IMG/VR virus record: IMGVR_UViG_3300044678_001935
Span: 35,982-99,981 of that record
Strand: one strand, 5' to 3'
DNA length: 64,000 nucleotides
DNA from: a virus
Lineage: Duplodnaviria; Heunggongvirae; Uroviricota; Caudoviricetes
Shown in pieces: positions 32,054 through 64,000 of this stretch. How positions within the stretch are numbered: the stretch's first letter is position 1; each line of letters opens with the position of its first letter. Position numbers and translations under genes: made by a program. The notes under the pieces are model-generated. The model had not been told where the DNA came from. It was given only the letters and a program-made list of their open reading frames with translations, and made no database searches.

Positions 32054-32403
32054 AAACTATTATTGCCGGATCAAGAAATTGTAATAACATAAAAGAATTA
32101 ATAAAAGCTATTGAAGATTGTAATTGGGTAATAACAACAGTAATAAGTGGAAAAGCTAAGGGTGCTGATACATTAGGTGAATTGTGGGCCAAATATATGA
32201 AGGTTCCTATTATTGAATTTCCAGCCGATTGGAAAACTTATGGTAGATCCGCCGGCCCCCGTAGAAATATTCAAATGGCAGATAATGCAGAAGCTCTTAT
32301 TGCATTATGGGATGGTGAGAGTCGTGGAACAAAACACATGATAAGTGTAGCCGAAGAAAAACAACTATTGGTACACGTCCATAAATTCTGTTGTGACGGT
32401 TGA
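32050..32403 (+). CDS. SLOG/DUF2493 (YspA-like) domain protein
   Basis: IIAGSRNC...ISGKAKGADTLGELWA..VPIIEFPADWKTYGRSAGPRRNIQMAD..ALIALWDGESRGTKHMI matches the DUF2493 consensus GsR..GGA.GaD..A..WA...PAdW..G..AGp.RN..M. GTG start overlapping the upstream TGA. Confidence 0.6.
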   Translation: MKTIIAGSRNCNNIKELIKAIEDCNWVITTVISGKAKGADTLGELWAKYMKVPIIEFPADWKTYGRSAGPRRNIQMADNAEALIALWDGESRGTKHMISVAEEKQLLVHVHKFCCDG

Positions 32404-32424
32404 AAAACTGTCACTTCTTTTCGT

Positions 32425-32895
32425 TTGTGGGTGGTAATCGCTGTTATTCTATTCGGAGAGTTCACGAGAAGAATGTTTTCTGAAGAAGATACTGCGCGAT
32501 GTTGGGATGCACAAAATCCTAAAACCACACCAGAAACCTTAGATCGTCTGGCTAACGATAAGAGTAATCTGGTTCGTCGTAGGGTTGCAGAAAATCCCAA
32601 TACACAATCAGAAACATTAGAACGTCTAGCTGATGACGACGATTATTGGGTTCGTTTTCGGGTTGCAATTAATCCCAACGCACCACCAGAAGCCTTAGAA
32701 CGGCTGGCGAATGATAAGGATTCTTCTGTTCGTTGGTATATTGCAAGAAATCCTATCACACCACCAGAAGTTTTAGAACTTATGGCTAATGATAGGGATT
32801 GGGATGTTCGTTGGCAGGTTGCAAGAAATCCTAACACACCGCAATACATTATAACGTATCTTAAAATCAAGGAGTTTCTGAATTATTATGAGTAA
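32425..32895 (+). CDS. LRV/HEAT-like repeat protein
   Basis: Four 26-aa repeats and the C-terminal NPNTPQYIITYLKIKEFLNYYE. The true start may be the internal ATG at 32473 (MFSEEDTARC). Confidence 0.5.
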   Translation: MWVVIAVILFGEFTRRMFSEEDTARCWDAQNPKTTPETLDRLANDKSNLVRRRVAENPNTQSETLERLADDDDYWVRFRVAINPNAPPEALERLANDKDSSVRWYIARNPITPPEVLELMANDRDWDVRWQVARNPNTPQYIITYLKIKEFLNYYE

Positions 32896-33205
32896 TTATG
32901 ATCTAGCAAGAAATTCCAACACATTACCAGAAGCTTTAGATCGTCTGGCTAATGATAACGATTATTGGGTTCGTCAATATGTTGCATATAATCCATCCAC
33001 GCCACCAGAAGCTTTAGAACGTCTGGCTAATGATAAGTATCCATGTATTCGTTGTGGGGTTGCATGGAATCCCAACACACTACCAGAAATATTAGTTAAT
33101 ATGTCTAATGATAAGTATATTTATATTCGTAGCTGTGTTGCAAATAATCCCAGCACACCACAATACATTAGAACATATCTTAAACTCAACCAAAACAATT
33201 TTTGA
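32888..33205 (+). CDS. LRV/HEAT-like repeat protein
   Basis: Starts MSNYDLA at the junction TTATTATGAGTAATTATGA, overlapping the upstream stop by 8 nt. Confidence 0.55.
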   Translation: MSNYDLARNSNTLPEALDRLANDNDYWVRQYVAYNPSTPPEALERLANDKYPCIRCGVAWNPNTLPEILVNMSNDKYIYIRSCVANNPSTPQYIRTYLKLNQNNF

Positions 33206-33206
33206 C

Positions 33207-34460
33207 ATGTCTTTGAGCGCCATTAAACTCCGCCCACAACAGACCGAAGCTCTTGGTATTATGGAAGAGCATAATAAAGTTCGGGTTATTGCTGCAACAT
33301 CAGCGGGTAAGAGTTACATCATCTTCTTTGATATTCATAAGAAAGCGAAGAATAAAGAGAACTCTTTGTTTGTTATCGTAAGCTCTCGTATTCTACTCCT
33401 TCAACAACTAGAGAAAGAATATTCTAAACTATTTGATAATACTCATATCGTTCATATGCACTCTGGAGAAGCCAAAAGCCGTAAGATTACAGATTATCTT
33501 GAGTTCAGTTATTGGGCAGAAGTCACCGAAGGACCTAAGATTGTTTTTGTAACTTATCATTCTCTTAAGAAGATCGTTAAGAGTGAGATGAATATTGATG
33601 CTCTATATTTGGACGAATGCCACAATGGAGCTAAGAGTCACTTCTTTGAGTATATTAAAGGAGTTGAACCTTATTGTAATAATCTTTACAGTTTCACCGC
33701 TGCTCCTCGTTATCATCCAGATCCTACAAAAAACGGTAACAACAACTCAGAAGTTTTTGGTAGTCAAGTTTATAATGTTAATACTCTTGATTTGATCAAG
33801 AATGGTTCTATTCTTCCACCAAAATCCCAAACCATGAGAATTCCTTCCGTGCGGGATAAGAAGCAGAACCCTCATGAGAGTGATTATTATACTCTTATGG
33901 ACTATCTTTATAATAACGATAATACCGAGAGAGTTCTTATTACTTGCCCCTCTTCAAGATCACTTATGGATTTGATTTGTCTTACTGATTTTTTGAAAGA
34001 TTTGAATGATAGTGGTTATGATGTATTTCATATCACATCAAAATATGGTGCCTTCCATAATAAGACAAAGATTAAACGGTCAGAATTCTTGAATCGGATG
34101 GAAGAGTATGGGGAGCAAAATAAAAAATTTGTCGTTCTCCATTATAGTATCTTGACCGAAGGTTGGAGTAATAATTCCATTCAGGCATCTATTCTCATGC
34201 GACAACAACAATTGGGTGCTACAATTCAAAATATTGGTAGGACACTACGGATTGGCCATTCAGATATTGATCGTATTCAAAAAGGGGAGTTGACTGCTGG
34301 TGATTATGATAATTATGAAAAGCCCTGTGGTAACATAATCATTCCAGTATATGAGAACGTGGGTTCTAACATTGAAGAACAGGTAGATTTTGTTATTGAC
34401 GAGGTTTTTACCAAAGGTAATTATGTTCACGATCTTATTAATGAGAAAAAGAAGTCATGA
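33207..34460 (+). CDS. superfamily 2 DEAD/DEAH-type helicase
   Basis: Motif I AATSAGKS, motif II LDECH, and a C-terminal helicase domain with QN.GRTLR. The in-frame ATG at 33207 is preferred over the track start at 33108, which overlaps the upstream gene. Confidence 0.65.
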   Translation: MSLSAIKLRPQQTEALGIMEEHNKVRVIAATSAGKSYIIFFDIHKKAKNKENSLFVIVSSRILLLQQLEKEYSKLFDNTHIVHMHSGEAKSRKITDYLEFSYWAEVTEGPKIVFVTYHSLKKIVKSEMNIDALYLDECHNGAKSHFFEYIKGVEPYCNNLYSFTAAPRYHPDPTKNGNNNSEVFGSQVYNVNTLDLIKNGSILPPKSQTMRIPSVRDKKQNPHESDYYTLMDYLYNNDNTERVLITCPSSRSLMDLICLTDFLKDLNDSGYDVFHITSKYGAFHNKTKIKRSEFLNRMEEYGEQNKKFVVLHYSILTEGWSNNSIQASILMRQQQLGATIQNIGRTLRIGHSDIDRIQKGELTAGDYDNYEKPCGNIIIPVYENVGSNIEEQVDFVIDEVFTKGNYVHDLINEKKKS

Positions 34461-34801
34461 ATAATGAAGGATTGAAAATATTACAGGCGTCTAATACCAA
34501 CACACCAACAGAAATCTTAGAACGTCTGGCTAATGATGGGGATTATTATGTTCGTTCTCGGGTTGCATCTAATCACAACACATCACCAGAAACCTTAGAA
34601 CGTCTGGCTAATGATGATTTTGTGGATGTTCTTTATTGGGTTGCAGAAAATCCCAACACTCCGTCAGAAATCTTAGAACGTTTGGCTAATGATGGTTCTT
34701 GGTTTGTTCGTTGTGGGGTTGCAAATAATCCCAATACACCTCAATACATTATAACATATCTTAAAATCAAGAAGTTTCTGAATTATTATGAGCAATTATA
34801 A
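34457..34801 (+). CDS. LRV/HEAT-like repeat protein
   Basis: ATGA overlap with the helicase stop. Repeats TEILERLANDGDYYVRSRVASNHNT.., C-terminus NPNTPQYIITYLKIKKFLNYYEQL. Confidence 0.55.
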   Translation: MNNEGLKILQASNTNTPTEILERLANDGDYYVRSRVASNHNTSPETLERLANDDFVDVLYWVAENPNTPSEILERLANDGSWFVRCGVANNPNTPQYIITYLKIKKFLNYYEQL

Positions 34802-35336
34802 TCCCAACATATCACCAGAAACATTAGCTAGTCTGGCTAATAATGATTATGGGGTTGTTCGTTTTGGGGTTGCAACAAATCCTAACACACCACCAGAAGC
34901 ATTAGAACTTCTGGCGAATGATGATCATATTGATGTTCGTCGTGGGGTTGCAGTGAATCCCAACACACCACCAGAAACATTAGAACTTCTGGCTAATGAT
35001 GAGAATGTTGGTGTTCGTGTGAGGGTTGCAGGAAATCTCAACACACTACCAGAAGCATTAGAACGTCTTGCTAATGATGGCGATTATTATGTTCGTTATT
35101 GGGTTGCATCAATTACCAACACACCACCAAAAATATTAGTTATTATGGCTAACGATAAGCATTCTCATGTTCGTAGCTGTGTTGCATCTAATACCAATAC
35201 ACCACCAGAAGCCTTAGAACGTCTGGCTAATGATAATAATTGGCTTGTTCGTTGGCAGGTTGCATATAATCCCAACACTCCCCAATACATTCTAACTTAT
35301 CTTAAAATCAAGGAGTTTCTGAATTATTATGAGTAA
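34788..35336 (+). CDS. LRV/HEAT-like repeat protein
   Basis: 182 aa with six repeats, starting MSNYNPN at the conserved junction. Confidence 0.55.
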   Translation: MSNYNPNISPETLASLANNDYGVVRFGVATNPNTPPEALELLANDDHIDVRRGVAVNPNTPPETLELLANDENVGVRVRVAGNLNTLPEALERLANDGDYYVRYWVASITNTPPKILVIMANDKHSHVRSCVASNTNTPPEALERLANDNNWLVRWQVAYNPNTPQYILTYLKIKEFLNYYE

Positions 35337-35338
35337 TT

Positions 35339-35581
35339 ATGAGTAATTATGATCCCCACACATCAACAGAAACATTAGATCGTCTGGCTAATGATGAAGA
35401 TTTGGAAGTTCGTTGTCAGGTTGCACAAAATCCCAATACACCACCAGAAGCATTATCACGTCTGGCTGATGATAAGAGTTATTATGTTCGTTCTGGGGTT
35501 ACATTTAATCCCAACACACCTCAATACATTCTAACTTATCTTAAAATCAAGAAGTTTCTGAATTATTATAAATTATTATGA
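35339..35581 (+). CDS. LRV/HEAT-like repeat protein
   Basis: Preceded by a duplicated junction ATGAGTAATT x2 (35329-35348) that creates a 5-codon mini-ORF MSNYE. Confidence 0.5.
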   Translation: MSNYDPHTSTETLDRLANDEDLEVRCQVAQNPNTPPEALSRLADDKSYYVRSGVTFNPNTPQYILTYLKIKKFLNYYKLL

Positions 35582-35910
35582 CTAATTACGATATAGCAAA
35601 AAATCTCAATACATCAATAGAAACCTTAGAACGTCTGGCTAATGATGACGATTGTTGTGTTCGTTGTGGGGTTGCAGAAAATCCCAACACACCACCAGAA
35701 GCATTAGCACGTCTGGCGAATGATAATAGTTATTATGTTCGTGGCTGGGTTGCAAGAAATCCCAATACACCACCAGAAGCCTTAGAACGTCTGGCTAATG
35801 ATAATAATTGGCTTGTTCGTTGGCAGGTTGCATTTAATCCCAACACCCCCCAATACATTCTAACTTATCTCAAAGTTAGACAGTTTCTGAGGTGTCACAC
35901 TAGAACCTAA
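35578..35910 (+). CDS. LRV/HEAT-like repeat protein
   Basis: Starts MTNYDIAKN and carries four repeats. Confidence 0.55.
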   Translation: MTNYDIAKNLNTSIETLERLANDDDCCVRCGVAENPNTPPEALARLANDNSYYVRGWVARNPNTPPEALERLANDNNWLVRWQVAFNPNTPQYILTYLKVRQFLRCHTRT

Positions 35911-39470: not shown

Positions 39471-40007
39471 TTGGCTATGTATGAAGATTATTCTAAAAAA
39501 CAATTAGCTCTTCTGGCTAATGATAAACATTATTATGTTCGTTGTGGTGTTGCAAATAATCCCAACACACAACCAGAAACATTAGATCGTTTAGCGAACG
39601 ATGAGCATCTGCATGTTCGTAGATATGTTGCACGAAATCCAAACACACCACCAGAAGCCTTAGATCGTCTGGCTAATGATGAGGATTCTTGGGTTCGTCT
39701 TGGGGTTGCAAGACATCCCAACACACCACCAGAAGTTTTAGAATGTTTGGCTAATGATAAGGATTATTCTGTTCGTTGTTGGGTTGCGAGAAATCCCAAC
39801 ACAACACCAGAAACCTTAGATCGTCTGGCTAATGATGAGCATTATTATGTTCGTACGCCGGTTGCATTTAATCCCAACACACCACCAAAAAGCTTAGAAC
39901 GTCTGGCTAATGATGAGGATTGGTATGTTCGTTTTGGAGTTACAATAAATCCCAGCACACCTCAATACATTAAAACCTATCTTAAAATTTTAAAATTATT
40001 CAAATGA
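39471..40007 (+). CDS. LRV/HEAT-like repeat protein
   Basis: 178 aa with six 26-aa repeats. C-terminus NPSTPQYIKTYLKILKLFK. Confidence 0.55.
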   Translation: MAMYEDYSKKQLALLANDKHYYVRCGVANNPNTQPETLDRLANDEHLHVRRYVARNPNTPPEALDRLANDEDSWVRLGVARHPNTPPEVLECLANDKDYSVRCWVARNPNTTPETLDRLANDEHYYVRTPVAFNPNTPPKSLERLANDEDWYVRFGVTINPSTPQYIKTYLKILKLFK

Positions 40008-41010: not shown

Positions 41011-41276
41011 TGAAAAAACTTTCTCTTAAAGAAACTCACACTCTTTTGAAGAAATACAATCATGTTATTTTTGACGAAGAAACCTCTGGGTTAAATTCAA
41101 AACTTAATGACGATGGGTTAATTATTACGTTAAAAAGTGGTAACAATAAGAGTGTTATGTTGTTTCCCCATGAAAAAAATGAGTCTGTTGAGATCACTAA
41201 AACCACAGTAACTCTTTATGATAGTATGGGTTGGGTTCATAATTTCATCCCCCTTATGAATGCCGACTTGATTTGA
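41010..41276 (+). CDS. small hypothetical protein
   Basis: In-frame ATG of track ORF 40914..41276, overlapping the deaminase stop by 1 nt (TAATG). Confidence 0.35.
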   Translation: MKKLSLKETHTLLKKYNHVIFDEETSGLNSKLNDDGLIITLKSGNNKSVMLFPHEKNESVEITKTTVTLYDSMGWVHNFIPLMNADLI

Positions 41277-41282
41277 ATTATT

Positions 41283-41609
41283 ATGAGTAATTATGAGCTA
41301 GCGAGGAGACGTAACACTCCACCAGAAGCATTATCACGTCTGGCTAATGATAAGGATTCTTATGTTCGTCGTGGGGTTGCATGGAATCCCAAGACCCCTC
41401 TAGAAACCTTAGATCGTCTGGCTAATGATAAGGATTCTTGGGTTCGTGGTGAGGTTGCATTTAATCCCAACACACCACCAGAAGTTTTAGAACGTCTGGC
41501 TAATGACGAGTATCGGTATGTTCGTCGTTTGGTTGCCAAAAATCCCAACACGCCACAATACATTAGAACATATCTTAAAATTACCGAGGTTTTGAATTAT
41601 TATGAGTAA
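41283..41609 (+). CDS. LRV/HEAT-like repeat protein
   Basis: MSNYELARRRNTPPEALSRLANDKDSYVRRGVA.. with C-terminal NPNTPQYIRTYLKITEVLNYYE. Confidence 0.55.
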   Translation: MSNYELARRRNTPPEALSRLANDKDSYVRRGVAWNPKTPLETLDRLANDKDSWVRGEVAFNPNTPPEVLERLANDEYRYVRRLVAKNPNTPQYIRTYLKITEVLNYYE

Positions 41610-41928
41610 TTATGAGCTAGCAGATAATCCCAACACCCCACCAGAAACATTAGAAAGTCTAGCGAATGACGATAATTGGTATGTTCGTAGCTGTGTGGCA
41701 TTTAATCCCAACACACCACCAGAAGCTTTAGAACGTCTGGCTGATGATGAGGATTTAAATGTTCGTTATTATGTTGCAAGAAATCCCAACACATTACCAG
41801 AAACCTTAGCTCGTCTGGCTAAGGATGAGGATTGTCGTGTTCGTCGTTGGGTTGCAAGAAATCCTAACACACCACAATACATCAAAGATTATCTTAAAAT
41901 CAAGGGGTTTTTGGGTTGTTATGAGTAA
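41602..41928 (+). CDS. LRV/HEAT-like repeat protein
   Basis: Starts at the conserved 8-nt overlap junction; four repeats. Confidence 0.55.
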   Translation: MSNYELADNPNTPPETLESLANDDNWYVRSCVAFNPNTPPEALERLADDEDLNVRYYVARNPNTLPETLARLAKDEDCRVRRWVARNPNTPQYIKDYLKIKGFLGCYE

Positions 41929-42100
41929 TATTGAACTAGCAGGAAATCCCAACACACCACCAGAAACCTTAGATCTTCTGGCTAATGATAATATTTGGAA
42001 TGTTCGTTATTTGGTTGCAAAAAATCCCAACACTCCACAATACATTAGAACATACCTTAAACTTCAAAGGACGATTGGTGGACTGTCCACAAGAAGTTGA
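41921..42100 (+). CDS. short LRV/HEAT-like repeat protein
   Basis: MSNIELAGNPNTPPETLDLLANDNIWNVRYLVAKNPNTPQYIRTYLK. The in-frame ATG sits at the junction TTATGAGTAATATTGA; the track ORF starts upstream at 41825. Confidence 0.4.
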   Translation: MSNIELAGNPNTPPETLDLLANDNIWNVRYLVAKNPNTPQYIRTYLKLQRTIGGLSTRS

Positions 42101-45609: not shown

Positions 45610-46223
45610 ATTACACCGAAGAACAAGTTAAAGAAATCGTCAGAAATGTCATTTCTGAGATGCAATCTGTAAATGTTAAGGATCTTACACTTTACCAAAA
45701 AAGGGGTGTTGCAAGAAATCCCAATACAGCACCAGAAGTCTTAGACCGTCTGGCTAATGATAAGGATTCTTATGTTCGTTGGCAGGTTGCAGAAAATCCC
45801 AACACACCACCAGAGACCTTAGAACGTCTGGCTAATGATGACGATTATTGTGTTCGTTGGAGTGTTGCATTTAATCCCAACACACCACCAGAAACATTAG
45901 CTCGTCTAGCTAATGATGTGGATTATTGTGTTCGTACGCCGGTTGCATTTAATCCCAACACACCACCAGAAGTTTTAGAACGTCTGGCTAATGATAACGA
46001 TTCTGTGGTTCGTTATTATGTTGCAAGAAATCCCAACACATTAACAGAAACTTTAGAACGTTTGGCTAATGATAAGAGTTCTTCTGTTCGTGAATGTGTT
46101 GTACAAAATCCTAACTACAAACGGAAATCCAACAATAAGATCACTATTGAGCTTACAGAAGAACAGTTGTCTCAATTACGAAAATGTGCAGACATGTTCT
46201 CTGGTCTTTTAGGATCTGTATAA
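45606..46223 (+). CDS. LRV/HEAT-like repeat protein
   Basis: 205 aa with six 26-aa repeats, a unique N-terminal 30 aa and a unique C-terminal 35 aa (no NYYE tail). Confidence 0.55.
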   Translation: MNYTEEQVKEIVRNVISEMQSVNVKDLTLYQKRGVARNPNTAPEVLDRLANDKDSYVRWQVAENPNTPPETLERLANDDDYCVRWSVAFNPNTPPETLARLANDVDYCVRTPVAFNPNTPPEVLERLANDNDSVVRYYVARNPNTLTETLERLANDKSSSVRECVVQNPNYKRKSNNKITIELTEEQLSQLRKCADMFSGLLGSV

Positions 46224-50519: not shown

Positions 50520-50794
50520 TTATGGACCTCAATAATTTTGATTATTTCCGAGCCGGTAAATATCCAGGATGTATGGATATTAAAAAAATCGGGTATCATT
50601 CATCAGTTGGTGTTATGGCGGTGGTATCATCACTACCACCTGAGATAAATGCCCCAGATATTGAGAAAAATTTCGTTCAATTTCGTAAGCATAAAAATAC
50701 TCCGAAAGTTGCTCTTTTCTCATTTAATTATGAAGTAGAACTGGATGAATACTGGCAAGATTCTGATATTATTTGGGATAGTCGCAACTCATGA
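50513..50794 (+). CDS. hypothetical protein
   Basis: 93-aa ORF. Confidence 0.35.
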   Translation: MLIMDLNNFDYFRAGKYPGCMDIKKIGYHSSVGVMAVVSSLPPEINAPDIEKNFVQFRKHKNTPKVALFSFNYEVELDEYWQDSDIIWDSRNS

Positions 50795-51312
50795 CTGAAC
50801 AAGAGCAAAAACTATTAAACAAGTTTCTTTCCTCTATTGAAGAAGACGAAAAGTTCTTCAAAGAGATTATGAACCGAACAGATGAAGACGCAAGACTTCT
50901 TCAATGGATTGTCAATAATAATATCAATCCTTACGGTGTTTTTCCTTATTATATTGCTGGCAGTCTTTCCGAATTACAATCCTTTGTTGCCATCTACATT
51001 AAGATGACGTATCAAAGAAAGCACTGTGAAATTAATTACGTCAACGTTGAAAGAACAAGTAGCTCACATGATCATGTTGATAACCTAGGACCGAGAGTAG
51101 TTTTTGTTGGTAAATGGGAAGATGATTTTCATGCGCTAGTTAAAAAAGAATTAAATCTACCCGACGATGAGCTACCATGGGAATCATACACTTATGACTT
51201 TGACATCTTAGAAAACGTAGACGCCTTTATTGAAACATACAATAGGGTTGAAGATTATCACAAGAATCGTTATGAAGAAAACAGTAAGCTTGCGGATAGG
51301 TGGTTATCATGA
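50791..51312 (+). CDS. hypothetical protein
   Basis: 173-aa ORF whose stop TGA overlaps the lysS ATG (ATGA). Confidence 0.4.
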
Positions 51313-52787
51313 ATGAAGAAACATCACAATTTTTATCAGCCAGGTTGGATAAGATTTCAGAACTACAGAAAATAGGGCAAGTTGCATATGCTAATTCTTT
51401 TCACCCTACAATTAAAGCATTAGAATTACATAAGAATTATTTTAATCTGGAAAATGGTTCTGAATGTGATGATAATGTTGTTATAGCTGGTCGTATTATC
51501 GCAAGAAGAGTATTCGGTAAGTTGTCATTTTTTACTCTTTCCGATGACAGTGGAACAATTCAGCTTTATATTGAGAACGCCATCGTTGGTTCCGATATTG
51601 TTTCCTTAACCGATGTCGGCGACTGGATCGGCGCCACCGGCACCCTGCGGCGCACCGACCGGGGCGAGCTTTCGGTCAAGGTGCGCGACTGGACGATGCT
51701 CAGCAAGTCGCTTCAGCCCCTGCCCGACAAGTGGCATGGCCTGGCGGACGTGGAGAAGCGCTACCGGCAGCGCTATCTCGATCTGATCGTCTCCCCCCAC
51801 ACCCGCGAAACTTTCCGGCGACGTGCCATTTTGATTAGAACTATTCGCAATTGGCTTGACTCGCGGGAATTTTTGGAGATTGAAACTCCTATTCTACAAA
51901 CCGAAGTTGGCGGAGCCGAGGCCAAACCTTTCTCAACATATCATAACACTCTAGATCTATCATTAACTCTAAGAATTGCGACCGAGTTGCACCTTAAGAG
52001 GATGATTGTTGGTGGTTTTGAAAGAGTTTATGAGTTGGGTCGTATATTTCGTAATGAAGGTCTAAGCACCCGCCATAATCCAGAGTTTACAACCGTTGAG
52101 ATTTATCAGGCATATGCAGATTATAATGATATGATGATTTTAACAGAAAATCTCATATCTACTTGCGCAGAGACAGTTTGTGGTTCTACTGTAATAGTTT
52201 ATCAAGATGAAAAAATTGATCTAACTCCTCCTTGGAATAAATGTACAATGCACGAATTGGTTTTTGAGCATACTGGTCTTGATTTTCATCAATTTTCGTC
52301 AAGAACCGATGCCGCTAATGCTATGGAAACTATTGGATTGGTTGTTCCTGATAGTGCCGATTCCGTTGGTCGGTTATTAAACGAAGCCTTTGAACAAAGA
52401 GTTGAAAAACAGCTCATTCAACCGACTTTTGTTTTAGATTATCCTGTTGAAATTTCTCCACTGGCCCGTTCTCATAGAGAAAAACCGGAATTGGTTGAAA
52501 GATTTGAATTATTCATCTTTGGTCGTGAAATTGCCAATGCCTTTAGCGAACTCACCGATCCTTTAGAACAGAGAAAAAGATTAGAAGAACAACAAACCCG
52601 CCGCAATAATGGCGATCAAGAGGCTCACACTATTGATGAAGACTTTTTAAACGCACTTGAAATTGGAATGCCGCCAACCGGAGGACTAGGTATTGGTATA
52701 GACAGATTGACAATGTTACTTACGGATAGTCCGTCTATTCGTGATGTTATCGCTTTTCCTTTAATGCGCCCAGAGGACAAAACATGA
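51309..52787 (+). CDS. lysS: lysyl-tRNA synthetase (class II)
   Basis: N-terminal OB anticodon-binding region ([23 protein letters not shown]), motif 2 [23 protein letters not shown] and motif 3 [18 protein letters not shown] at 51309; the track lists a GTG at 51300. Confidence 0.85.
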
Positions 52788-53428: not shown

Positions 53429-53655
53429 TTATGAGAGCAACAGTTTATAAGGCAGTCTTGTGTATTGTTGATCATGAAGATATGCCAGAAGAATCCGTTA
53501 TTCATCTTTTAGAAAATGTTCGTTATCTTTATCCGAACATTATTAGTCTAGAATCACGAGAGATTGAAGAGTGGAATGATGAACATCCATTAAACAAAAA
53601 AGACACACATACTCAAGAATTTGGAAGATTATTCAATGGCATTCATTCAAAATAA
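53425..53655 (+). CDS. small hypothetical protein
   Basis: 76-aa ORF. Confidence 0.3.
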   Translation: MIMRATVYKAVLCIVDHEDMPEESVIHLLENVRYLYPNIISLESREIEEWNDEHPLNKKDTHTQEFGRLFNGIHSK

Positions 53656-54091
53656 AAACATTCTAACGCTTCATGATAACGAAATCTTCGTCTTTGGAAG
53701 CAACCGCGCTGGCATTCATGGAGCAGGAGCCGCTCTGCACGCCGCAAGATACTTTAAGGCTGTCCACGGGGTCGGTGAGGGCCTTACAGGGTTCTCCTAC
53801 GCACTACCAACAAAGCGAGCCAACTTTACCATCTGCTCTCTGGATGAGATTTCTTGGTCATTAAAATGTTTAAAAGAGTGTGCTAAAGAAAATCATATGT
53901 TCACTTTCTTCTTAACGAGAATCGGGCAGGGTTATGCAGGAATTCCAGAGAAAGATATTAAGAATCTGGTTATAAAAACCGATTTGCCTGATAATGTTCT
54001 TCCTTGGTGGATATGGGAGAATGCTTTTGGAACTTTCACAAAGGAAAATATTAACGTAAATTTGGATATTTTGGGTGTGACAGTTGATTAA
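53621..54091 (+). CDS. hypothetical protein, tentatively macro-domain-like (ADP-ribose binding)
   Basis: FVFGSNRAGIHGAGAALHAARY resembles the macro signature NAAN..LGGGGVDGAIHRAAG. It contains a GC-rich island at 53690-53840. The assignment is tentative. Confidence 0.3.
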   Translation: MEDYSMAFIQNKNILTLHDNEIFVFGSNRAGIHGAGAALHAARYFKAVHGVGEGLTGFSYALPTKRANFTICSLDEISWSLKCLKECAKENHMFTFFLTRIGQGYAGIPEKDIKNLVIKTDLPDNVLPWWIWENAFGTFTKENINVNLDILGVTVD

Positions 54092-54156
54092 GTGGCTACC
54101 ACGAACTTCAATGATTCTGTTTTGTGCTATGATTTTCTGGTAACTTAAGAGGTTTT

Positions 54157-54381
54157 ATGTGCCCTATGGATGAACTTGATCTGTATTTTGAACAAATTTG
54201 GGAGAAGCACAAGCCTTCAAAAAAACTTCCTGTAGAGTTTGAGAAAAATCTTAAACAGTCTTTTATGTCTGCTGCTCGTGAAGTGTGGAAAAAAAGCCTA
54301 GAACATGATAGAGAACGAATGATTCAGGAATTTCCTGATTTCGTCAAAGAACGATATTTTCATACAGGCCCAGTTGCATAA
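54157..54381 (+). CDS. small hypothetical protein
   Basis: 74-aa ORF. Confidence 0.3.
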   Translation: MCPMDELDLYFEQIWEKHKPSKKLPVEFEKNLKQSFMSAAREVWKKSLEHDRERMIQEFPDFVKERYFHTGPVA

Positions 54382-54842
54382 TAAAAACAAATTATTACGA
54401 TAACATTCTTCTAAATTTATGAACTTTGATTTTTTAGAACGACAACCAAAAATTATTCAAGAGTTTTTATTATTTTTTGTTGAAATTTATTTTGGATTTA
54501 CCATAAAATGTAATATGGCATTTTTCTTATGGCGCTATATTATGACTCATGATATTGATGTATTAAAAAAACATGTTTTGGATTAACTACATTTAATGAC
54601 TTTTATGCTACACTTAATGGAGGATGGAGAGGCGCCAAATAAAAAAGTGTAAAATCTGTAAACAAACTAGGACAACCTCTTGTTACGCCAGGTGTTTGAA
54701 TTCCCGGAACAAACATTAATACAAAAGATTTTGTTTATACCTAATCAACTTGGTGTTGTGCCAATTGGAAACGTGTCCACTAATCCATCTTATATCCAGT
54801 AAATCTGCTACTATACAAGGAGTTAAAACAAATGGGTGAACT

Positions 54843-55010
54843 ATGAAACGTTTATTATCTTTTCTCTGGTCTGGCTGTTGGCATGAATGGGTAGATGAAA
54901 AACGGGAAGCTGTTACTTTTGTGAGTGATTATTCGCCGGATGTTTCTGGTTATAGAGTATTTCAGAAGTGCAAAAAATGTGGTGATACGCGGGTCAAAAG
55001 GCTTATGTAA
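54843..55010 (+). CDS. small Cys/His-containing protein (not in the ORF track; 55 aa)
   Basis: ATG preceded by AGGAG. Encodes ..SGCWHEW..CKKCGD.., a possible zinc-binding motif. Confidence 0.3.
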   Translation: MKRLLSFLWSGCWHEWVDEKREAVTFVSDYSPDVSGYRVFQKCKKCGDTRVKRLM

Positions 55011-55033
55011 GTTATCGCTAAATAACAATTCAC

Positions 55034-55105
55034 CTGGAAATAAGTCAGTGGTAGACGGTCTAGTTTGGGGCTAGAAAGACGTTGGTTCGAGTCCAACTTT
55101 TCAGA
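55034..55105 (+). tRNA. tRNA-Pro (TGG)
   Basis: Acceptor CTGGAAA/TTTTCAG, D arm AGTC-AGTGGTA-GACG, anticodon arm TCTAG-TTTGGGG-CTAGA (U33, anticodon TGG, G37) and T arm GTTGG-TTCGAGT-CCAAC. Confidence 0.55.
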
Positions 55106-55175
55106 TTTGGGATAATCCCCAAAACAAATTGGAGATAGACTCCGATTTTTAAACTATTCTAAGGAGCTTAGAACA

Positions 55176-56234
55176 ATGAAAAAATACGATGCGGTGGTTT
55201 TCATCGGCAGGTTTCAACCTTTCCATAACGCTCATTTTGATATTATCAAAAAAGCTTATGAGCTAACTGATTATGTAATTCTTATCGCGGGTTCTCAGTA
55301 TCAACCACCTAGCTATAAGAATCCATTTCAGGCTTTAACTTTTGACGGTTATTTTGATTCAATTGGAAAAACCATTGATAATTATCTTAGAGTTAACTTT
55401 GAGGATTATTATGACGAAGACCGTAACTATGAGTTCTCGTTTTGTTTTCAACGAGATATTTACGGTGATAATCTCTGGTGCAAAAGTGTACAGGAAAAAG
55501 TATCAGAATTATTCTTAGGTCAAGAAGCTGAAATAGCCATTATTGGTTGTAATAAGGATGAAAGTTCTTATTACTTAAATATGTTCCCTCAGTGGGATCT
55601 TATTGAGGTTCCTCTGGATCAAAACCTTAGTGCTACACAGATCAGAGAACTTTATTTCGTTGAAGAACCAAATATGAGTTTTCTTCAAGGTGTTGTATCG
55701 TCTGAGGTTTTTAATTATCTTGACGAACACAAAAATACCGAATGGCACAATAATATCGTAAACGAACGAAATTTTATTGAAAAATACAAAGCCCAATATG
55801 CTTCTTTCCCATATCCACCAACATTCGTTACTGTAGATTCTGTAGTATTTCAATCCGGTCATGTTCTCGTTGTTCGGAGAAATGCTTATCCTGGTAAAGG
55901 TCTTATTGCTCTTCCTGGTGGATTCTTAGACGCTAATAGTGATGCCTCTTTGGAAGATGCTATGATTAGAGAACTGAGAGAGGAAACAGGGCTTAAAGTG
56001 CCAACTCCGGTTCTCAAGGGATCTATTAAAGATGTTAAAGTTTTTGATTCTCTTTATAGAAGCTCTCGTGGACGGACTATTACTCATGCTCATAACATTG
56101 TATTGTCTGATGGAGAACTACCTAGAGTCAAAGGTGATTCTGATGCTGATAAGGCTTTCTGGTTACCATTCAGCCAACTTAAATCAGAGCAATTTTTTGA
56201 AGACCATTATCAAATTATCAATTATTTTCTATGA
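55176..56234 (+). CDS. natV: bifunctional NMN adenylyltransferase / Nudix hydrolase (NadM-Nudix, NatV-like)
   Basis: N-terminal GRFQPFHNAH (the H/TxGH nucleotidyltransferase motif) and a C-terminal Nudix box GGFLDANSDASLEDAMIRELREETGL. Confidence 0.8.
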   Translation: MKKYDAVVFIGRFQPFHNAHFDIIKKAYELTDYVILIAGSQYQPPSYKNPFQALTFDGYFDSIGKTIDNYLRVNFEDYYDEDRNYEFSFCFQRDIYGDNLWCKSVQEKVSELFLGQEAEIAIIGCNKDESSYYLNMFPQWDLIEVPLDQNLSATQIRELYFVEEPNMSFLQGVVSSEVFNYLDEHKNTEWHNNIVNERNFIEKYKAQYASFPYPPTFVTVDSVVFQSGHVLVVRRNAYPGKGLIALPGGFLDANSDASLEDAMIRELREETGLKVPTPVLKGSIKDVKVFDSLYRSSRGRTITHAHNIVLSDGELPRVKGDSDADKAFWLPFSQLKSEQFFEDHYQIINYFL

Positions 56235-56431
56235 TTATGAATCAAGTGCAACTGAGTAAAATGTCAAGAGAAGAAAAACTTAAGGCATTGGCTTTAATTG
56301 ATAAAAACATTGAGACAACAAAACTTAAATTAAGCCAATTACATCATGAAGCCTATAAGTTGCAATATGAATTAGGTTATTACGCTAAAAAAGAAATCCT
56401 TTATGGAATTAAATATGATGTTCAAAATTAA
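56231..56431 (+). CDS. small hypothetical protein
   Basis: 66-aa ORF with ATGA overlap to natV. Confidence 0.3.
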   Translation: MIMNQVQLSKMSREEKLKALALIDKNIETTKLKLSQLHHEAYKLQYELGYYAKKEILYGIKYDVQN

Positions 56432-56951
56432 TAAAAATCGAAACTTCCTAGAAGACTATAAGAAATATTATTTCTTTTATGATACTCCATTGTCAAATTG
56501 GGCAGGTTATTCTTTTGTTGATACAACAACTGGAGTTTCTTACAATTGCTCAGAACAGTTTATGATGCACAAGAAGGCCCTACTTTTTTCTGATTATAAT
56601 ACTGCCGGCAAGATCATGAATAAAGAATACCCAGGAGATCAAAAAGCCTTGGGTAGAATGGTGGCAGGCTTTGATGTTAGCATTTGGAATGAATATGCAA
56701 GAGATCTTGTGTATGAAGGATGTTATTATAAGTTTACCCAAAATAAGGAAGCTTATGAATATCTTATGGGGACAGAAGGTTATCTTCTAGTAGAGGCATC
56801 ACCAACAGATACTATTTGGGGTATTGGACTTGGAGGTTATGATGCAGATAATCAAGATCCTAAAAATTGGAGAGGAACTAACTGGTTGGGTGAAGTTCTT
56901 ACACAACTACGAGAAGATTTGAAAGATAACCCAGAGTTAGTTTTATTCTAG
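56403..56951 (+). CDS. NADAR (DUF1768, YbiA-like) domain protein
   Basis: ..NCSEQFMMHKKALLF..KALGRMV..WNEYARDLVYEGCYYKFTQNKEAYEYLMGTEGYLLVEASPTDTIWGIGLGG matches the NADAR pattern (EH....K......LGR...W......M......KF.QN..L...LL.T...L.E.SP.D..WG.G). Confidence 0.65.
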   Translation: MELNMMFKINKNRNFLEDYKKYYFFYDTPLSNWAGYSFVDTTTGVSYNCSEQFMMHKKALLFSDYNTAGKIMNKEYPGDQKALGRMVAGFDVSIWNEYARDLVYEGCYYKFTQNKEAYEYLMGTEGYLLVEASPTDTIWGIGLGGYDADNQDPKNWRGTNWLGEVLTQLREDLKDNPELVLF

Positions 56952-57027
56952 TCAGATGTAAAGACTTTAAAACATAATTCAACGATAGACGTTGAATTTT
57001 ATCCACTATCATTTTAAGGAGTTTAAA

Positions 57028-59343
57028 ATGGACAACATTATTCTTTCTGCTGATTCTTACAAATACTCTCAGTTCAATCAATATCCTCCACAAACAGAGG
57101 GTGTTTATTCTTACATTGAGAGTCGCGGTGGTGGAGAAGAAGTTCTCTTTATGGGTCTTCAGATCTATCTTAAGGAATATCTATCTCGTCCCATTCGCAT
57201 GGAAGATATTGACGAAGCAGAGGAACTTATTCTCGCTCACGGAGAACCTTTTTATCGTGGCGGGTGGGAATACATCGTTAAGAAGCATGGTGGTTATCTA
57301 CCCGTAAGAGTAAAAGCCGTTCCAGAAGGAATGGTGATTCCAACGAAAAATGTTTTGGTTACGATTGAGAATACAGATCCAAACTGCTATTGGCTGACAA
57401 GTTTTCTAGAGACAAGTCTTCTTCGGCATGTTTGGTTTCCAACAACGGTTGCGACGAATTCTTATAACATCAAGAAGCTTATTTTGAGTTACTTGATTCG
57501 TAATGGAGATCCCAATACGATTGATTATAAGCTACATGACTTTGCATTTCGAGGTGTGTCTTCTTCTGAATCTGCCGGAATCGGTGGTATTGCACACCTT
57601 GTTAATTTCAAGGGAACTGATACAGTTGCCGCTCTTCGTTATGGTAGAAAATATTATAACGAAAAAATGGCAGGCTACTCGGTCCCAGCTTCAGAACATG
57701 GTGGAATCACGAGTTGGGGTAAAGAAAACGAAGTAGCGGCATATAGAAATATGCTTAATCATTATGCTAAGCCTGGTGCTATCGTCGCTTGTGTAAGTGA
57801 CAGTTATGACATTTATAACGCTTGCGATAAGCTCTGGGGTGAGGAGTTAAAGGATGAAGTTATTGCTTCTGGTGCTACTCTGACGGTCAGGCCGGATTGT
57901 TATGATGATCAAACTAAGATTTTAACTCCTAGTGGGTGGAAATTATTTTGTGAATTATCGGAAAACGATCTGGTTGCCCAGGTTAATCCCGATAAAACTT
58001 ATGAATTTGTCAAACCTCTTGAAATTATTAATGAATATTATGAAGGAGAAATGTATCAAATTCGGGATTTTCACGGAAAAATTGATCTCTTAGTCACTCC
58101 TAATCATAGATTAGTGGTTGTAGATAGAGCTGGTGAACTTATAGTAAAAGAAGCCAAAGATTATAACCCAAAAAATTTGAATTACCGAAAACTTCGTTCG
58201 GCTAAGGCCAAAACTTTTGGGAAAAATTTAACCTGGCACGAAAGACTATTAATCGCATTACAGGCTGATGGTACTATTAGAAAAACGACCTCCAATAAGA
58301 CGAGTATTGAATTCAATTTTCAAAAAGAGCGAAAGCATAATAGATTATTAAATATTCTTAATAATTTAAATTATGAGTATAGTGTCTTTTATAGTGAGTC
58401 TAGGGAGGGCCAATCAATTATAACCGTGTCAATACCATTGGGTGAAATTGTTTCTAAAACATTTGATTGGGTTGATATTTCAAACTTGGATAGTCAATGG
58501 TGTGAGCAATTTATAGATGAATTAAAACATTGGGATTCTTCTATTAGAAATAGTGGAAGATTTAAATATGATACTACAGTTAAATTTAACATAGACGTAG
58601 TAGAATATATTGCCATTTCTTCAGGGAAAGGGATTTTAATTTCCGTCGCCGAAGATAATAGACAATCTTATTATTCTGATGTTTATACTGCACATATATT
58701 GGATAATCCTTATTCTGGTGGTCAGACCATAACCAAAACAAAAGTTAATTATAAAGGAAGTGTACATTGTGTTAAAGTTCCGAGTGGTATGGTTTTAGTT
58801 AAAAGACACCGGGGAGTTTCTGTTTCTGGAAATTCTGGAGAACCTGTAGAAGTGAATCTTAAGTGTGCTCAAATTCTTGAAAGTCATTATGGATCTACCG
58901 TAAACTCTAAAGGATTTAAGGTACTCAATAACGTCAAGCTCATTCAGGGTGATGGTGTTAATTATGAAACTGTAGATCGGGTTCTTCATGTACTTGAATC
59001 TAACGGATATAGTAGTGATAACATTGGTTTCGGAATGGGTGGCGCCCTGCTCCAGGCTGTTACTCGTGATGATTACAAATTTGCCATGAAGTGTAGTGCG
59101 GTTAATGTGGCTGGAAATTGGAGGGATGTTTACAAGGATCCTATTACAGATCCAGGTAAAACATCTAAGAAAGGTCGTCTGAATCTGATTCATACCGATA
59201 ATGGTTACGAAACGGTTCCTGAACGCCCATGGAATAAAGATGTTCTTGAGGTTGTTTATGAGAATGGAGAACTTCTAAAGGATTATACTTTGGAAGAAAT
59301 CCGAGTGAACGCAAATCGGTGTATTCATAATTACTTCGCATAA
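57028..59343 (+). CDS. nadV: nicotinamide phosphoribosyltransferase NadV, interrupted by an intein
   Basis: N-terminus MDNIILSADSYKYSQFNQYPP is NAMPT-like and has a TAAGGAG RBS. The extein aligns with NAMPT on both sides of a 312-aa insertion between RPD and SGEP (human RPDSGNP), and NSKGFKVL..LIQGDGV matches NSKGYKLL..VIQGDGV. Confidence 0.8.
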   Translation: MDNIILSADSYKYSQFNQYPPQTEGVYSYIESRGGGEEVLFMGLQIYLKEYLSRPIRMEDIDEAEELILAHGEPFYRGGWEYIVKKHGGYLPVRVKAVPEGMVIPTKNVLVTIENTDPNCYWLTSFLETSLLRHVWFPTTVATNSYNIKKLILSYLIRNGDPNTIDYKLHDFAFRGVSSSESAGIGGIAHLVNFKGTDTVAALRYGRKYYNEKMAGYSVPASEHGGITSWGKENEVAAYRNMLNHYAKPGAIVACVSDSYDIYNACDKLWGEELKDEVIASGATLTVRPDCYDDQTKILTPSGWKLFCELSENDLVAQVNPDKTYEFVKPLEIINEYYEGEMYQIRDFHGKIDLLVTPNHRLVVVDRAGELIVKEAKDYNPKNLNYRKLRSAKAKTFGKNLTWHERLLIALQADGTIRKTTSNKTSIEFNFQKERKHNRLLNILNNLNYEYSVFYSESREGQSIITVSIPLGEIVSKTFDWVDISNLDSQWCEQFIDELKHWDSSIRNSGRFKYDTTVKFNIDVVEYIAISSGKGILISVAEDNRQSYYSDVYTAHILDNPYSGGQTITKTKVNYKGSVHCVKVPSGMVLVKRHRGVSVSGNSGEPVEVNLKCAQILESHYGSTVNSKGFKVLNNVKLIQGDGVNYETVDRVLHVLESNGYSSDNIGFGMGGALLQAVTRDDYKFAMKCSAVNVAGNWRDVYKDPITDPGKTSKKGRLNLIHTDNGYETVPERPWNKDVLEVVYENGELLKDYTLEEIRVNANRCIHNYFA
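57898..58833 (+). mobile_element. intein (312 aa) with a LAGLIDADG-like motif, in-frame within nadV
   Basis: Begins with Cys (CYDDQTKILTPSGW) and has block B LVTPNHRL. The LAGLIDADG-like motif is LLIALQADGTIRK. It ends ..VSVSGN followed by an extein Ser, and it sits in the conserved PRPP-binding RPDSG site. Confidence 0.65.
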
Positions 59344-59348
59344 GGAGT

Positions 59349-60360: not shown

Positions 60361-61710
60361 ATGTCATTGTTTCTAACAGATACTCTAACAAAAGAAAAAA
60401 GGGAATTCGTTCCACTAGAAAATAACACTGTCAACATATACTCCTGTGGTGTGACCGTTTATGATCTAACACACTTTGGTCATGCTCGCAGTTTTATAGT
60501 TTGGGATGTTCTTCGTAGACACCTAAAATGGCTTGGATATGCTGTTAAATTTGTTCAGAACTATACCGATATTGATGATAAAATTATTGCAAAAGCCAAT
60601 GAACAGAATCAAACAATCAAAGAAATAACAGAAAAGTACATTAACGAGTATGAGAAAGATATGACCTTTCTTAATGTTATGTTGCCGGATAAGATGCCTA
60701 GAGCCACAGATCATTTATCCGAAATTCGCAGTATGATTAAAACTCTAGAATCTAAAGGTGCTGCATATACTTTAGATGGTAGTGTTTATTTTTCTGTTAA
60801 TACTCATGAGAATTATGGTAGATTATCTGGAAGAATTTTAGACAATCAAAAAGATAACTCAGGTGAATTTCTTAAAAAGAATTCTTTTGATTTCGCATTA
60901 TGGAAAGCTTCTAAACCAGGTGAACCGAGTTATTCTTCTTATTGGGGAAATGGTAGACCGGGATGGCATATAGAATGTTCGGCGATGATCTGGAAGGAAT
61001 TTGGAAAGACTATTGATATCCATCTTGGGGGTTCTGATCTGATTTTTCCACATCATGAGAATGAAATAGCCCAAACTGAAGTTGCAACAGAAAATCAATT
61101 ATCTCGTTGGTGGTTACATTCTGGAATGGTAATGGTTGATGGTAAAAAAATGAGCAAGTCTCTAGGAAACTTTACAACCATTCGGTCCTTACAAGAATCA
61201 GGATTTAGTCCAATGGCCATAAGGCTTTTCGTATTACAGGGGCATTATCGCAAACCTCTTGATTTTACGGAAAATGCTTTAAAAATGGCAACGAATTCCT
61301 GGAATAAATTAAATGAAGTTTTGTTGTTAAAATCTTCAAAAGAAACTACCGAAATTGATTTTGATGATAAGCTAAGATCTTATCACAATAATTTTATAGA
61401 TGCTCTTAACGACGATCTCAATACTTCTCTTGCAATCTCAGTTCTTTTTGTTTTGGTTAAAGAAATAAGAGTGAATAACTCAGACTCTTATATTTTACTT
61501 TTGTGCGAATTATCAGCAATTCTTGGTCTTTTTGGAGAGCAAAAGTCCAATATAAGCGAATCAGAAATTTTAGAACAAATTGAATTAAGAAATTCAGCAA
61601 GAAAAGAAAAGAATTTTACTCTTGCGGATGAGATCAGAGAAAAATTATTAACTTCTGGTGTTAAACTTGAAGATACAAAAGACGGAACTAGTTTTAATTT
61701 TATTGTGTGA
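60361..61710 (+). CDS. cysS: cysteinyl-tRNA synthetase (class I)
   Basis: HIGH-type motif THFGHARS, zinc ligands CGVTVYD and WHIECSAM, the KMSKS motif GKKMSKSLGNF, and overall collinearity with bacterial CysRS (NYTDIDDKII, PRATDHL, FPHHENEIAQ). Confidence 0.85.
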   Translation: MSLFLTDTLTKEKREFVPLENNTVNIYSCGVTVYDLTHFGHARSFIVWDVLRRHLKWLGYAVKFVQNYTDIDDKIIAKANEQNQTIKEITEKYINEYEKDMTFLNVMLPDKMPRATDHLSEIRSMIKTLESKGAAYTLDGSVYFSVNTHENYGRLSGRILDNQKDNSGEFLKKNSFDFALWKASKPGEPSYSSYWGNGRPGWHIECSAMIWKEFGKTIDIHLGGSDLIFPHHENEIAQTEVATENQLSRWWLHSGMVMVDGKKMSKSLGNFTTIRSLQESGFSPMAIRLFVLQGHYRKPLDFTENALKMATNSWNKLNEVLLLKSSKETTEIDFDDKLRSYHNNFIDALNDDLNTSLAISVLFVLVKEIRVNNSDSYILLLCELSAILGLFGEQKSNISESEILEQIELRNSARKEKNFTLADEIREKLLTSGVKLEDTKDGTSFNFIV

Positions 61711-63155: not shown

Positions 63156-63589
63156 CCTTTCAGATGGAATTTTTAACCATAGATATGTATCGTTATGAGG
63201 TTGCAAATAATCCAAACACATCACCAGAAACTTTAGAACGTCTTGCTAATGATAAAGATTGGCGTGTTCGTTATTATGTTGCAAGAAATCCCAACACACC
63301 ACCAGAAACCTTAAAGTGTCTGGCTAATGATGTGTATTCTGATATACGTTGTGGGGTTGCACTGAATCCCAATACACCAACAGAAACAGTAGATCGTCTG
63401 GCTAATGATGAGTATCTGCATGTTCGTAGATATGTTGCACAAAATCCCAACACACCACCAGAAGCTTTAGATCGTCTGGCTAATGATGTGGATTGGGGGG
63501 TTCGTGGATGGGTTGCAAATAATCCTAACACACCACAATACATTAGAACCTATCTTAAACTCAAGGAGTTTCTGAATTATTATGAGTAA
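63152..63589 (+). CDS. LRV/HEAT-like repeat protein
   Basis: 145 aa with five repeats. C-terminus NPNTPQYIRTYLKLKEFLNYYE. The true start is uncertain (several in-frame Met). Confidence 0.5.
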   Translation: MTFQMEFLTIDMYRYEVANNPNTSPETLERLANDKDWRVRYYVARNPNTPPETLKCLANDVYSDIRCGVALNPNTPTETVDRLANDEYLHVRRYVAQNPNTPPEALDRLANDVDWGVRGWVANNPNTPQYIRTYLKLKEFLNYYE

Positions 63590-63842
63590 TTATGATCTTG
63601 ATCTAGATCTTGCATGGAATCCCAACACACCCCCAGAAACATTGGATCTTCTGGCTAATGATGTGGATTGGATTGTTCGTTGGTATGTTGCAGAAAATCC
63701 CAACACACAATCAGAAACCTTAGAACGTCTGGCTAATGATAGCGATTATTGTGTTCGTTGGTGTGTTGCAACAAATCCCAACACACCACAATATATTCTA
63801 ACATATCTTAAAATCAAAAAGTTTTTGAATTGTTATGAGTAA
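63582..63842 (+). CDS. LRV/HEAT-like repeat protein
   Basis: MSNYDLDLDLAWNPNTPPETLDLLANDVDWIVRWYVAENPNT.. at the conserved junction. Confidence 0.55.
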   Translation: MSNYDLDLDLAWNPNTPPETLDLLANDVDWIVRWYVAENPNTQSETLERLANDSDYCVRWCVATNPNTPQYILTYLKIKKFLNCYE

Positions 63843-64000
63843 TTTTGATCTTGCAAAAAATCCCAACACACCACCAGAAGTCTTAGACCGTCTGGCTGAT
63901 GATGAGGATTTAAATTTTCGTTATTATGTTGCATGGAATTCCAACACGAAAACAGAAACCTTAGAACGTTTGGCTAATGATGGGGATACTAAGGTTCGTG
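63839..64000 (+). CDS. LRV/HEAT-like repeat protein (3' truncated by the window end)
   Basis: MSNFDLAKNPNTPPEVLDRLADDEDLNFRYYVAWNSNTKTETLERLANDGD.. continues beyond position 64000. Confidence 0.45.

Follow-up and report, generated by a model that had tools for sequence, protein, structure and literature searches.

The penicillin-binding protein (PBP) genes of Streptococcus and Neisseria are mosaics produced by short-tract homologous recombination between diverged alleles, and aminoacyl-tRNA synthetase (aaRS) genes are carried by jumbo and huge phages as well as by giant viruses. In cyanophages, patchy %G+C within the photosystem genes psbA and psbD was attributed by Zeidner et al. in 2005 to the exchange of gene segments between phage and host, and Sullivan et al., who cite that work, extended this intragenic exchange in 2006 and confirmed it with cultured pairs (PMC1484495). 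A comparable mosaic is found in lysS, the gene of a lysyl-tRNA synthetase (LysRS), within a 64,000-nt stretch of a tailed-phage genome of the Caudoviricetes (positions 35,982 to 99,981 of the IMG/VR record IMGVR_UViG_3300044678_001935); this whole stretch is referred to as the window. Like psbA and psbD, lysS is here a host-derived gene of a low-GC cyanophage with internal host-like high-GC patches, and as in those genes, statistical tests assign the patches to phage–host segment exchange. The gene is very probably chimeric through repeated host-to-phage gene conversion at one site, in a phage of freshwater picocyanobacteria.

The gene, the patched segment and its sharp 5' border are located as follows, with all positions counted from the first letter of the window and L010 denoting the lysS locus of a freshwater host:

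51309-52787, plus strand: lysS, class II lysine-tRNA ligase of 492 aa, taken from the list of open reading frames (ORFs); the gene call at its ATG corresponds to 10001-11479 of contig L001

51594-51608, plus strand: 5' boundary of the island, five divergent codons adjoining a variable indel loop in the codon alignment

51609-51827, plus strand: the whole host-derived GC-rich island, aa 101-173, 97.3% identical to L010 over 219 nt

A preliminary description of this DNA had noted an abrupt GC-rich island at 51608-51830 within the AT-rich lysS, with G/C-ending codons and a preserved frame, and each of these features holds. The 223 nt contain 66.4% GC, compared with a window mean of 36.3%, and sequence comparison moves the edges by only a few bases, to 51609 on the 5' side and 51811-51827 on the 3' side. 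The GC content at third codon positions (GC3) is ~0.93 over ~65 codons of the island and ~0.25 in the rest of lysS, while the ORF runs on without interruption to yield a full-length LysRS. In windows of 15 codons, GC3 lies between 0.80 and 1.00 from ~51600 to 51765 and between 0.0 and 0.5 in the remaining gene. GC at codon positions 1 and 2 is raised only modestly within the island; the signal resides in the synonymous sites.

Sliding-window plots of GC and codon usage, as suggested in the preliminary description, show the island to be unique in the 64 kb. Among 100-nt windows across the stretch (standard deviation 5.5%), the maximum of 72% is reached inside the island. A GC content of 55% is attained in just four regions, and the lysS island is the single one above 62%. 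In a GC3 scan of all long ORFs, lysS ranks at the top with 0.96 over 25 codons. The runners-up (0.72-0.76) are off-frame or antisense ORFs and the other real genes do not exceed 0.64, such that no patch was found in any other gene of the window. The gene for CysRS (60361-61710), which is also of picocyanobacterial ancestry, provides an internal control: its GC3 is uniform (mean 0.24, maximum 0.52) and it shows no patch.

In the protein, the island begins in the last strands of the anticodon-binding OB-fold, passes through the linker between the two domains and ends ~25 residues into the catalytic domain. In the variable loop on its 5' side, the hosts and one divergent phage lineage (L003/L008) contain ~10 or more extra codons, and the 3' edge passes into a diverged stretch. 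An insertion, an intein or a mobile element was considered and rejected: the island is an in-register orthologous replacement without any change in length.

Milder GC bumps occur elsewhere in the window. One of them, at 53672-53857 (0.53-0.62), lies in an ORF with unknown function (53621-54091, phrog_2072) and was rejected as a sister patch, as it mainly reflects a Gly/Ala-rich motif (FGSNRAGIHGAGAALHAA...) at codon positions 1 and 2, with a GC3 of only 0.4-0.75; it could still be an old, eroded patch rather than no patch. Two others (0.54-0.55), at 13156-13324 and 30749-30848, are located inside the tail lysozyme and tail-fibre genes.

The donor of the island was sought among 160 loci encoding the island peptide, which were collected from one-genome-per-species and metagenome collections; all of them are cellular lysS genes except L089, which is another phage allele. 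This search for a high-GC source led to lysS of freshwater Synechococcaceae. L010 belongs to the metagenome-assembled genome (MAG) CE-Jul18-108, and its identity of 97.3% to the island compares with 95.4% for Loclat_bin-12067 (L009) and a median of 84% over the hosts. A max-chi2 scan against L010 delimits the segment 51609-51815 (chi2 = 127.5), with 28.0 as the largest value in 200 codon-wise permutations. Within this segment, the window is identical to L010 at 204/207 positions (98.6%) and to L009 at 200/207, in contrast to an identity of 57.5% to L010 outside. These values bear out the earlier proposal that a high-GC homologue recently donated a patch to lysS by recombination or gene conversion.

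In the codon alignment, the identity profile against the host is a step function, with 97-100% inside the island and 40-70% outside. Third positions are 0.9-1.0 identical to the host inside the island and 0.05-0.4 outside, where the synonymous sites are essentially randomised; for L009, the third-position identity is 0.913 in the island and 0.25 in both flanks. In amino-acid sequence, picocyanobacterial LysRS and the phage enzyme are up to 97% identical over the island peptide (aa 100-174), compared with ~45% over the N-terminal and ~75% over the C-terminal part. Only two bases differ from L010 in 51609-51811, namely 51616 (Val in the phage, Ala in the host) and the synonymous 51713. Together with 51812, they make up the three differences in the max-chi2 segment, all of which exchange a host G/C for a phage T, the pattern expected if amelioration towards an AT-rich genome had just begun.

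The contigs of the donor are uniformly ~70% GC, and host lysS has a GC3 of 0.64-1.0 throughout, without any discontinuity at the island. Because the patch has the composition of the host, the transfer would have run from host to phage, a direction that is deduced from composition and not from a phylogenetic test.

Two observations concern the host sequences themselves. Among the hosts L009, L011, L012 and L091, third-position identity is higher within the island segment than on either side of it (for L009 and L011, 0.83 in the island and 0.66 and 0.72 in the flanks), and another conserved block behaves similarly; this may be due to codon bias in a conserved block or to exchange among hosts. 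In addition, four loci with a high-GC lysS of the picocyanobacterial type (L016, L024, L031 and L051) are labelled Sulfopaludibacter, Bradyrhizobium ivorense, Microcystis elabens and Sphingobacterium thalpophilum in public records, which are probably mislabelled or contaminated MAG or assembly entries.

The history of the island can be read from eleven phage lysS alleles or copies, which were obtained from JGI, ENA and Logan assemblies. All eleven contain a GC3 island in the same alignment columns, although their mosaics differ. For counting differences to L010, the island was split into three segments:

51609-51758, plus strand: segment A (150 nt), putatively the older of two fresh layers, common to L171/L172, L089, L005-L007 and L173/L174; differences to L010: window 2, L171 4, L089 1, L005 5, L173 3, L169 25, L003 34, L008 31

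51759-51811, plus strand: segment B (53 nt), putatively the newest layer, private to the genotype of the window, which is that of contigs L001 and L002; differences to L010: window 0, L171 13, L089 11, L005 12, L173 12, L169 14, L003 13, L008 13

51812-51827, plus strand: segment C (16 nt), the 3' edge, a run of Arg CGN codons that is variable among the phage alleles; differences to L010: window 4, L171 2, L089 2, L005 0, L173 1, L169 2, L003 6, L008 6

In each of the phage alleles, 39-52% of the flanking sites are different from L010. The window and its closest relative, L171/L172, are distinguished by only 6 differences in 1,260 nt outside the island, while 13 of the 24 gene-wide differences to L171 are clustered within 51761-51800 (binomial P = 8e-15); at all 13 clustered sites, the base of the window is the host base. 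Segment B exists in a host-type (CGCTACCGGCAGCGCTATCTC...) and a phage-type (CGTTATCGTCAACGATACCTT...) version. The latter, with A/T-ending codons, is common to all other 492-aa alleles, including the most divergent one, L169, and among seven sampled 492-aa variants only the window protein has the host-type His in SPHTRE. The host-type version in the window is therefore the derived state, and segment B appears to be a very recent patch that is private to this genotype. In segment C, L005 matches the host at every base and the window has diverged in part.

Segment A resembles the host in the five close alleles, but is far more diverged in L169 and in L003/L008, a lineage with 76% identity. The island of these alleles has a GC content of 54-61%, and in L003/L008 it is ~80% identical to the best hosts, compared with ~60% in the flanks. 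This comparison was confined to the island, because the top hits of whole-gene blast searches with the L003/L008 alleles, low-GC Prochlorococcus, reflect compositional similarity only and were discarded. The base at 51616, which is C in the hosts, is T in the window, L171, L005, L173 and L169, but not in L089 or the divergent L003. The simplest reading of these alleles is that at least three layers are nested at one site: the oldest is partly eroded, the next was acquired by the common ancestor of the close relatives, and the last is private to the window genotype. The preliminary description had implied a single patch; recombination as the cause is upheld, but a single event is not, as the site would have to have been hit three times or more. 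Segment B accounts for one amino-acid change and segment A for two or three; with so few changes, the patches are likely to be near-neutral at the protein level, which argues against a strong adaptive replacement.

The carrier of lysS is an uncultivated AT-rich jumbo tailed phage and not a bacterial chromosome. The window encodes tail and baseplate components (baseplate hub, wedge and tube cap, a 1,555-aa tail fibre and tail lysozymes), replication and DNA-related proteins (a single-stranded DNA-binding protein (SSB), a helicase, an exonuclease, a DNA methyltransferase and an ATP-dependent ligase) and many small ORFs without matches. It also contains tRNA-Met and tRNA-Pro, a Thg1-like gene, a NAD-salvage module (NAMPT) and CysRS. 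The exact LysRS protein was found in public metagenome assemblies, and near-identical variants occur on contigs of 217 and 244 kb. A megablast search of GenBank phages with the 7 kb around lysS gave no match, a more distant blastn search against phage genomes gave only weak hits to unrelated lysS-like fragments, and a scan of the IMG/VR viral contigs with the LysRS protein retrieved nothing, i.e. no other phage lysS in that collection. Among cellular proteins, the nearest relatives of both LysRS (68-72% aa identity) and CysRS (51-53%) are found in the picocyanobacteria Synechococcus, Cyanobium and Vulcanococcus. The phage is presumed to infect freshwater picocyanobacteria, with the lysS donor as its presumed host.

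The start codon of lysS at 51309 overlaps the stop codon of an upstream 173-aa ORF of unknown function (50791-51312) in the sequence ATGA. All related phage contigs show the same arrangement of this pair and a 77-aa ORF downstream of it. The predicted product of lysS is a bona fide full-length bacterial-type class II LysRS, encoded in an uninterrupted frame. It contains an OB-fold (PF01336, aa 57-131) and a tRNA-synt_2 domain (PF00152, aa 148-486), scores well above the cut-offs of TIGR00499 lysS_bact (638.9 vs 427.6 bits) and NF001756 (688.7 vs 468 bits), and aligns end to end with the Geobacillus LysRS 3A74 (E = 6e-161), with the motifs FRNEG and GLGIGIDRL retained. By a rough estimate, Lys makes up 6.9% of the residues in the long ORFs of the window and 1.6% in ORFs sampled from GC-rich host loci; this ratio of ~4x, equally approximate, is the highest among ten residues checked. 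A LysRS of its own is plausible for a phage whose sampled proteins use ~4x more Lys than those of its host: in a cell with a 70%-GC genome, charging of tRNA-Lys could plausibly limit the translation of AT-rich, Lys-rich phage messages, and the enzyme would ease this limit.

The position of the patches is likely to be set by homology. Among hosts, the nucleotide identity in the 3' half of the island is 0.86-0.90, which places it among the best conserved parts of lysS. In a comparison with 86 high-GC hosts, the longest exact phage–host runs fall into the island for every phage allele; even in the eroded alleles they measure 23-29 nt there, as against 17 nt or less elsewhere in the gene. In L171, which serves as a proxy for the recipient of the newest event, segment B is directly preceded on its left by exact runs measuring 74 and 41 nt. 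As judged from the alignments, the island appears as a homology block between two non-homologous borders. Homology ends at the 5' boundary, and conversion tracts would therefore stop there.

These data are consistent with the following sequence of events. The phage would hold an old, diverged and compositionally ameliorated copy of host lysS. During infection of a cell of the donor lineage, this copy may recombine with the chromosomal lysS by short-tract homologous recombination, i.e. gene conversion, so that ~200 bp are swapped in register for host DNA and an in-frame chimeric gene for an intact LysRS results. A first, ancient event would have left the patch that is now eroded and is seen in the divergent lineages. 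In a second event, 51609-51758 would have been patched in the ancestor of the close relatives, and in a third, very recent event, 51759-51811 in the window genotype only. The conserved block between the 5' indel loop and the 3' diverged stretch would determine the position. As the patched island is the sole part of the gene with perfect phage–host matches of at least 20 nt, later exchanges could be channelled to it; no other stretch of the gene would be of sufficient length to recombine efficiently with the host once the first patch is in place, and the hotspot would therefore be self-reinforcing.

Several points weigh against this scenario and deserve to be set beside it. Phage recombinases that promote homeologous exchange are the topic of PMC2327257; in the 64-kb window, no recombinase was identified beyond the exonuclease and the SSB. 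The block 51939-52090 is equally conserved among hosts, yet unpatched, which makes protein conservation insufficient as the sole cause of the position and leaves homology by itself unable to account for the choice of this block, and the argument for a self-reinforcing hotspot was formed post hoc. The supposedly old layer in L003/L008 and L169 could instead consist of patches from unsampled donors. The pairing of phage and host is indirect, not directly observed, and joins donor MAGs and phage contigs from separate datasets. Likewise, the correctness of the junctions is based on the agreement of independent assemblies and not on reads, and phage and host do co-occur in lake metagenomes, with an island that is nearly identical to the host gene, as would suit host reads that had been joined to the phage contig by mistake where lysS is conserved. 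Such an assembly chimera is nevertheless very unlikely. Contigs assembled from two different samples match the window at 100% identity, over 21,479 nt (L001) and 11,232 nt (L002), the island recurs with distinct mosaics in at least eight other assemblies (from JGI, ENA and Logan, with different assemblers), and the phage-specific T at 51616, which is absent from the hosts, lies within it. Both junctions are in register and in frame, and no exact phage–host match of more than 17 nt exists outside the island, so that border k-mers for a mis-join are lacking. Misassembly and a match to a cloning vector or contaminant had been named in the preliminary description as possible objections; the former is countered by the independent samples, the latter by the nature of the island as orthologous lysS coding sequence. 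A further point is that the proximate donor could have been another phage with a fresher host-like lysS, through recombination during co-infection, with the host only as the ultimate source. Recombination between cyanophages is reported to be the commonest type for psbA and psbD (PMC1484495), and the reshuffled mosaics of segments B and C resemble exchange within a phage pool. No sampled phage allele other than the window genotype has a host-identical segment B, however, the viral collection yielded no other phage lysS, and with 0/53 differences to L010 a phage intermediate would have to be extremely recent; this route is considered unlikely.

The remaining alternatives concern the origin of the segment and its benefit. 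If lysS had been captured only once and its remainder had drifted towards AT, nucleotide-level selection, for instance on an RNA structure, a signal or an overlapping gene, would have had to preserve the segment. The identical position of the island in all phage lineages and its coding for a well-conserved part of the protein would suit this idea. It is decidedly improbable in view of the synonymous sites of the island, which are 91-100% identical to one extant host lineage where hosts differ by 5-10%, of equally conserved blocks elsewhere with a GC3 of 0.2-0.3, and of phages that are 99.5% identical elsewhere but differ at 13 clustered sites, at each of which the window equals the host. An RNA element was rejected, as the island folds no better than dinucleotide shuffles (z = +0.82; 156/200 shuffles fold at least as well), and an Rfam search of the island gave no match at E <= 1. 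The antisense frame opened by the island, already called spurious in the preliminary description, is equally explained by composition:

51606-51800, minus strand: spurious antisense ORF of 64 codons, a by-product of the G/C-ending sense codons

Stop codons interrupt this frame in four related alleles (L089, L005, L003 and L008), and the high-GC hosts leave it open, as composition predicts; an overlapping antisense gene was rejected, as the ORF is not conserved. A transfer in reverse, with a phage-born segment donated to Synechococcaceae lysS, can hardly be entertained, even though both directions were inferred for psbA (PMC1484495): the segment has a host-like composition (68-70% GC, GC3 >0.9) and not a phage-like one (36%), host lysS and its flanks are uniformly GC-rich, and among the lysS genes of 76 high-GC hosts no convincing AT-rich patch was found. 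The exchange might also be a selected re-synchronisation of the phage LysRS with that of the current host, through the end of the OB-fold and the inter-domain hinge, instead of a neutral by-product of homology. This idea has a small chance of being correct, and the few amino acids exchanged speak for neutrality. If true, the possible benefit would be a better fit to the tRNA-Lys of the host or, in mixed dimers, to its LysRS subunits, and the phage would also shuttle lysS segments between picocyanobacterial lineages. Repeated host-to-phage gene conversion at one site thus remains the preferred explanation.

Two further features of the window were recorded outside lysS. A block of ~5.3 kb (54084-59344) is absent from the 97%-identical L005/L006/L007, and an HNH endonuclease gene directly follows there. 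The block includes:

55034-55105: tRNA-Pro

55176-56234: NUDIX/nucleotidyltransferase gene

56992-59343: NADAR and NAMPT

It looks like a NAD-salvage cassette that is present or absent beside the HNH gene. In addition, stretches of 400-750 nt at ~31460-35890, 39512-39976, 41274-42054, 45707-46119 and 63186-63999 match one another and segments of L005/L006 at 74-82%. They appear to constitute a dispersed paralogous family of small ORFs, and related loci of this family show faint LRV/HEAT-like Pfam hits.

The chimeric lysS has implications beyond this phage. An identity of 98.6% over ~200 nt with lysS of Synechococcaceae is difficult to account for without an encounter of phage and host DNA in one cell, and it therefore provides a cultivation-free link between an uncultivated freshwater jumbo phage and a host lineage. 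The exchange of gene segments known from the photosynthesis genes of cyanophages would also act, repeatedly, on a core translation gene. The staged alleles, i.e. fresh, intermediate and eroded ones, could be used to calibrate natural rates of amelioration and conversion. Such patches can mislead phylogenies of viral aaRSs, host-prediction tools, read mapping and binning, and phage and host will each attract island reads of the other in mapping.

In comparison with known systems, the window phage resembles other aaRS-bearing jumbo phages in its cell-acquired translation genes (LysRS, CysRS, tRNAs and the Thg1-like gene), but the mere presence of an aaRS is here accompanied by continuing sequence exchange with the host orthologue. 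A phage–host mosaic in a phage aaRS was not found in the literature searched. With the PBP mosaics, lysS shares short in-frame blocks from a diverged homologue, abrupt steps in identity and composition and a preserved frame. The partners are, however, a virus and its host and not two bacteria, and the patch alters only 1-3 aa, which gives no evidence of a selected phenotype. Several features that mark mosaics of the psbA/psbD type are found in lysS, namely a phage locus, an orthologue in the host group, synonymous patchy %G+C, supported breakpoints and an identified donor, and in a broad sense the picocyanobacterial host group is the same. Unlike psbA and psbD, lysS encodes a translation enzyme and not a photosystem protein, and its carrier is a freshwater, uncultivated jumbo phage. 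The lysS case further differs in its very sharp step (98.6% vs 57.5%), in the identification of the donor lineage and in its nested alleles with repeated hits at one site. The lysS patch is thus a clean new example of the known phage–host gene conversion, extended to a translation gene.

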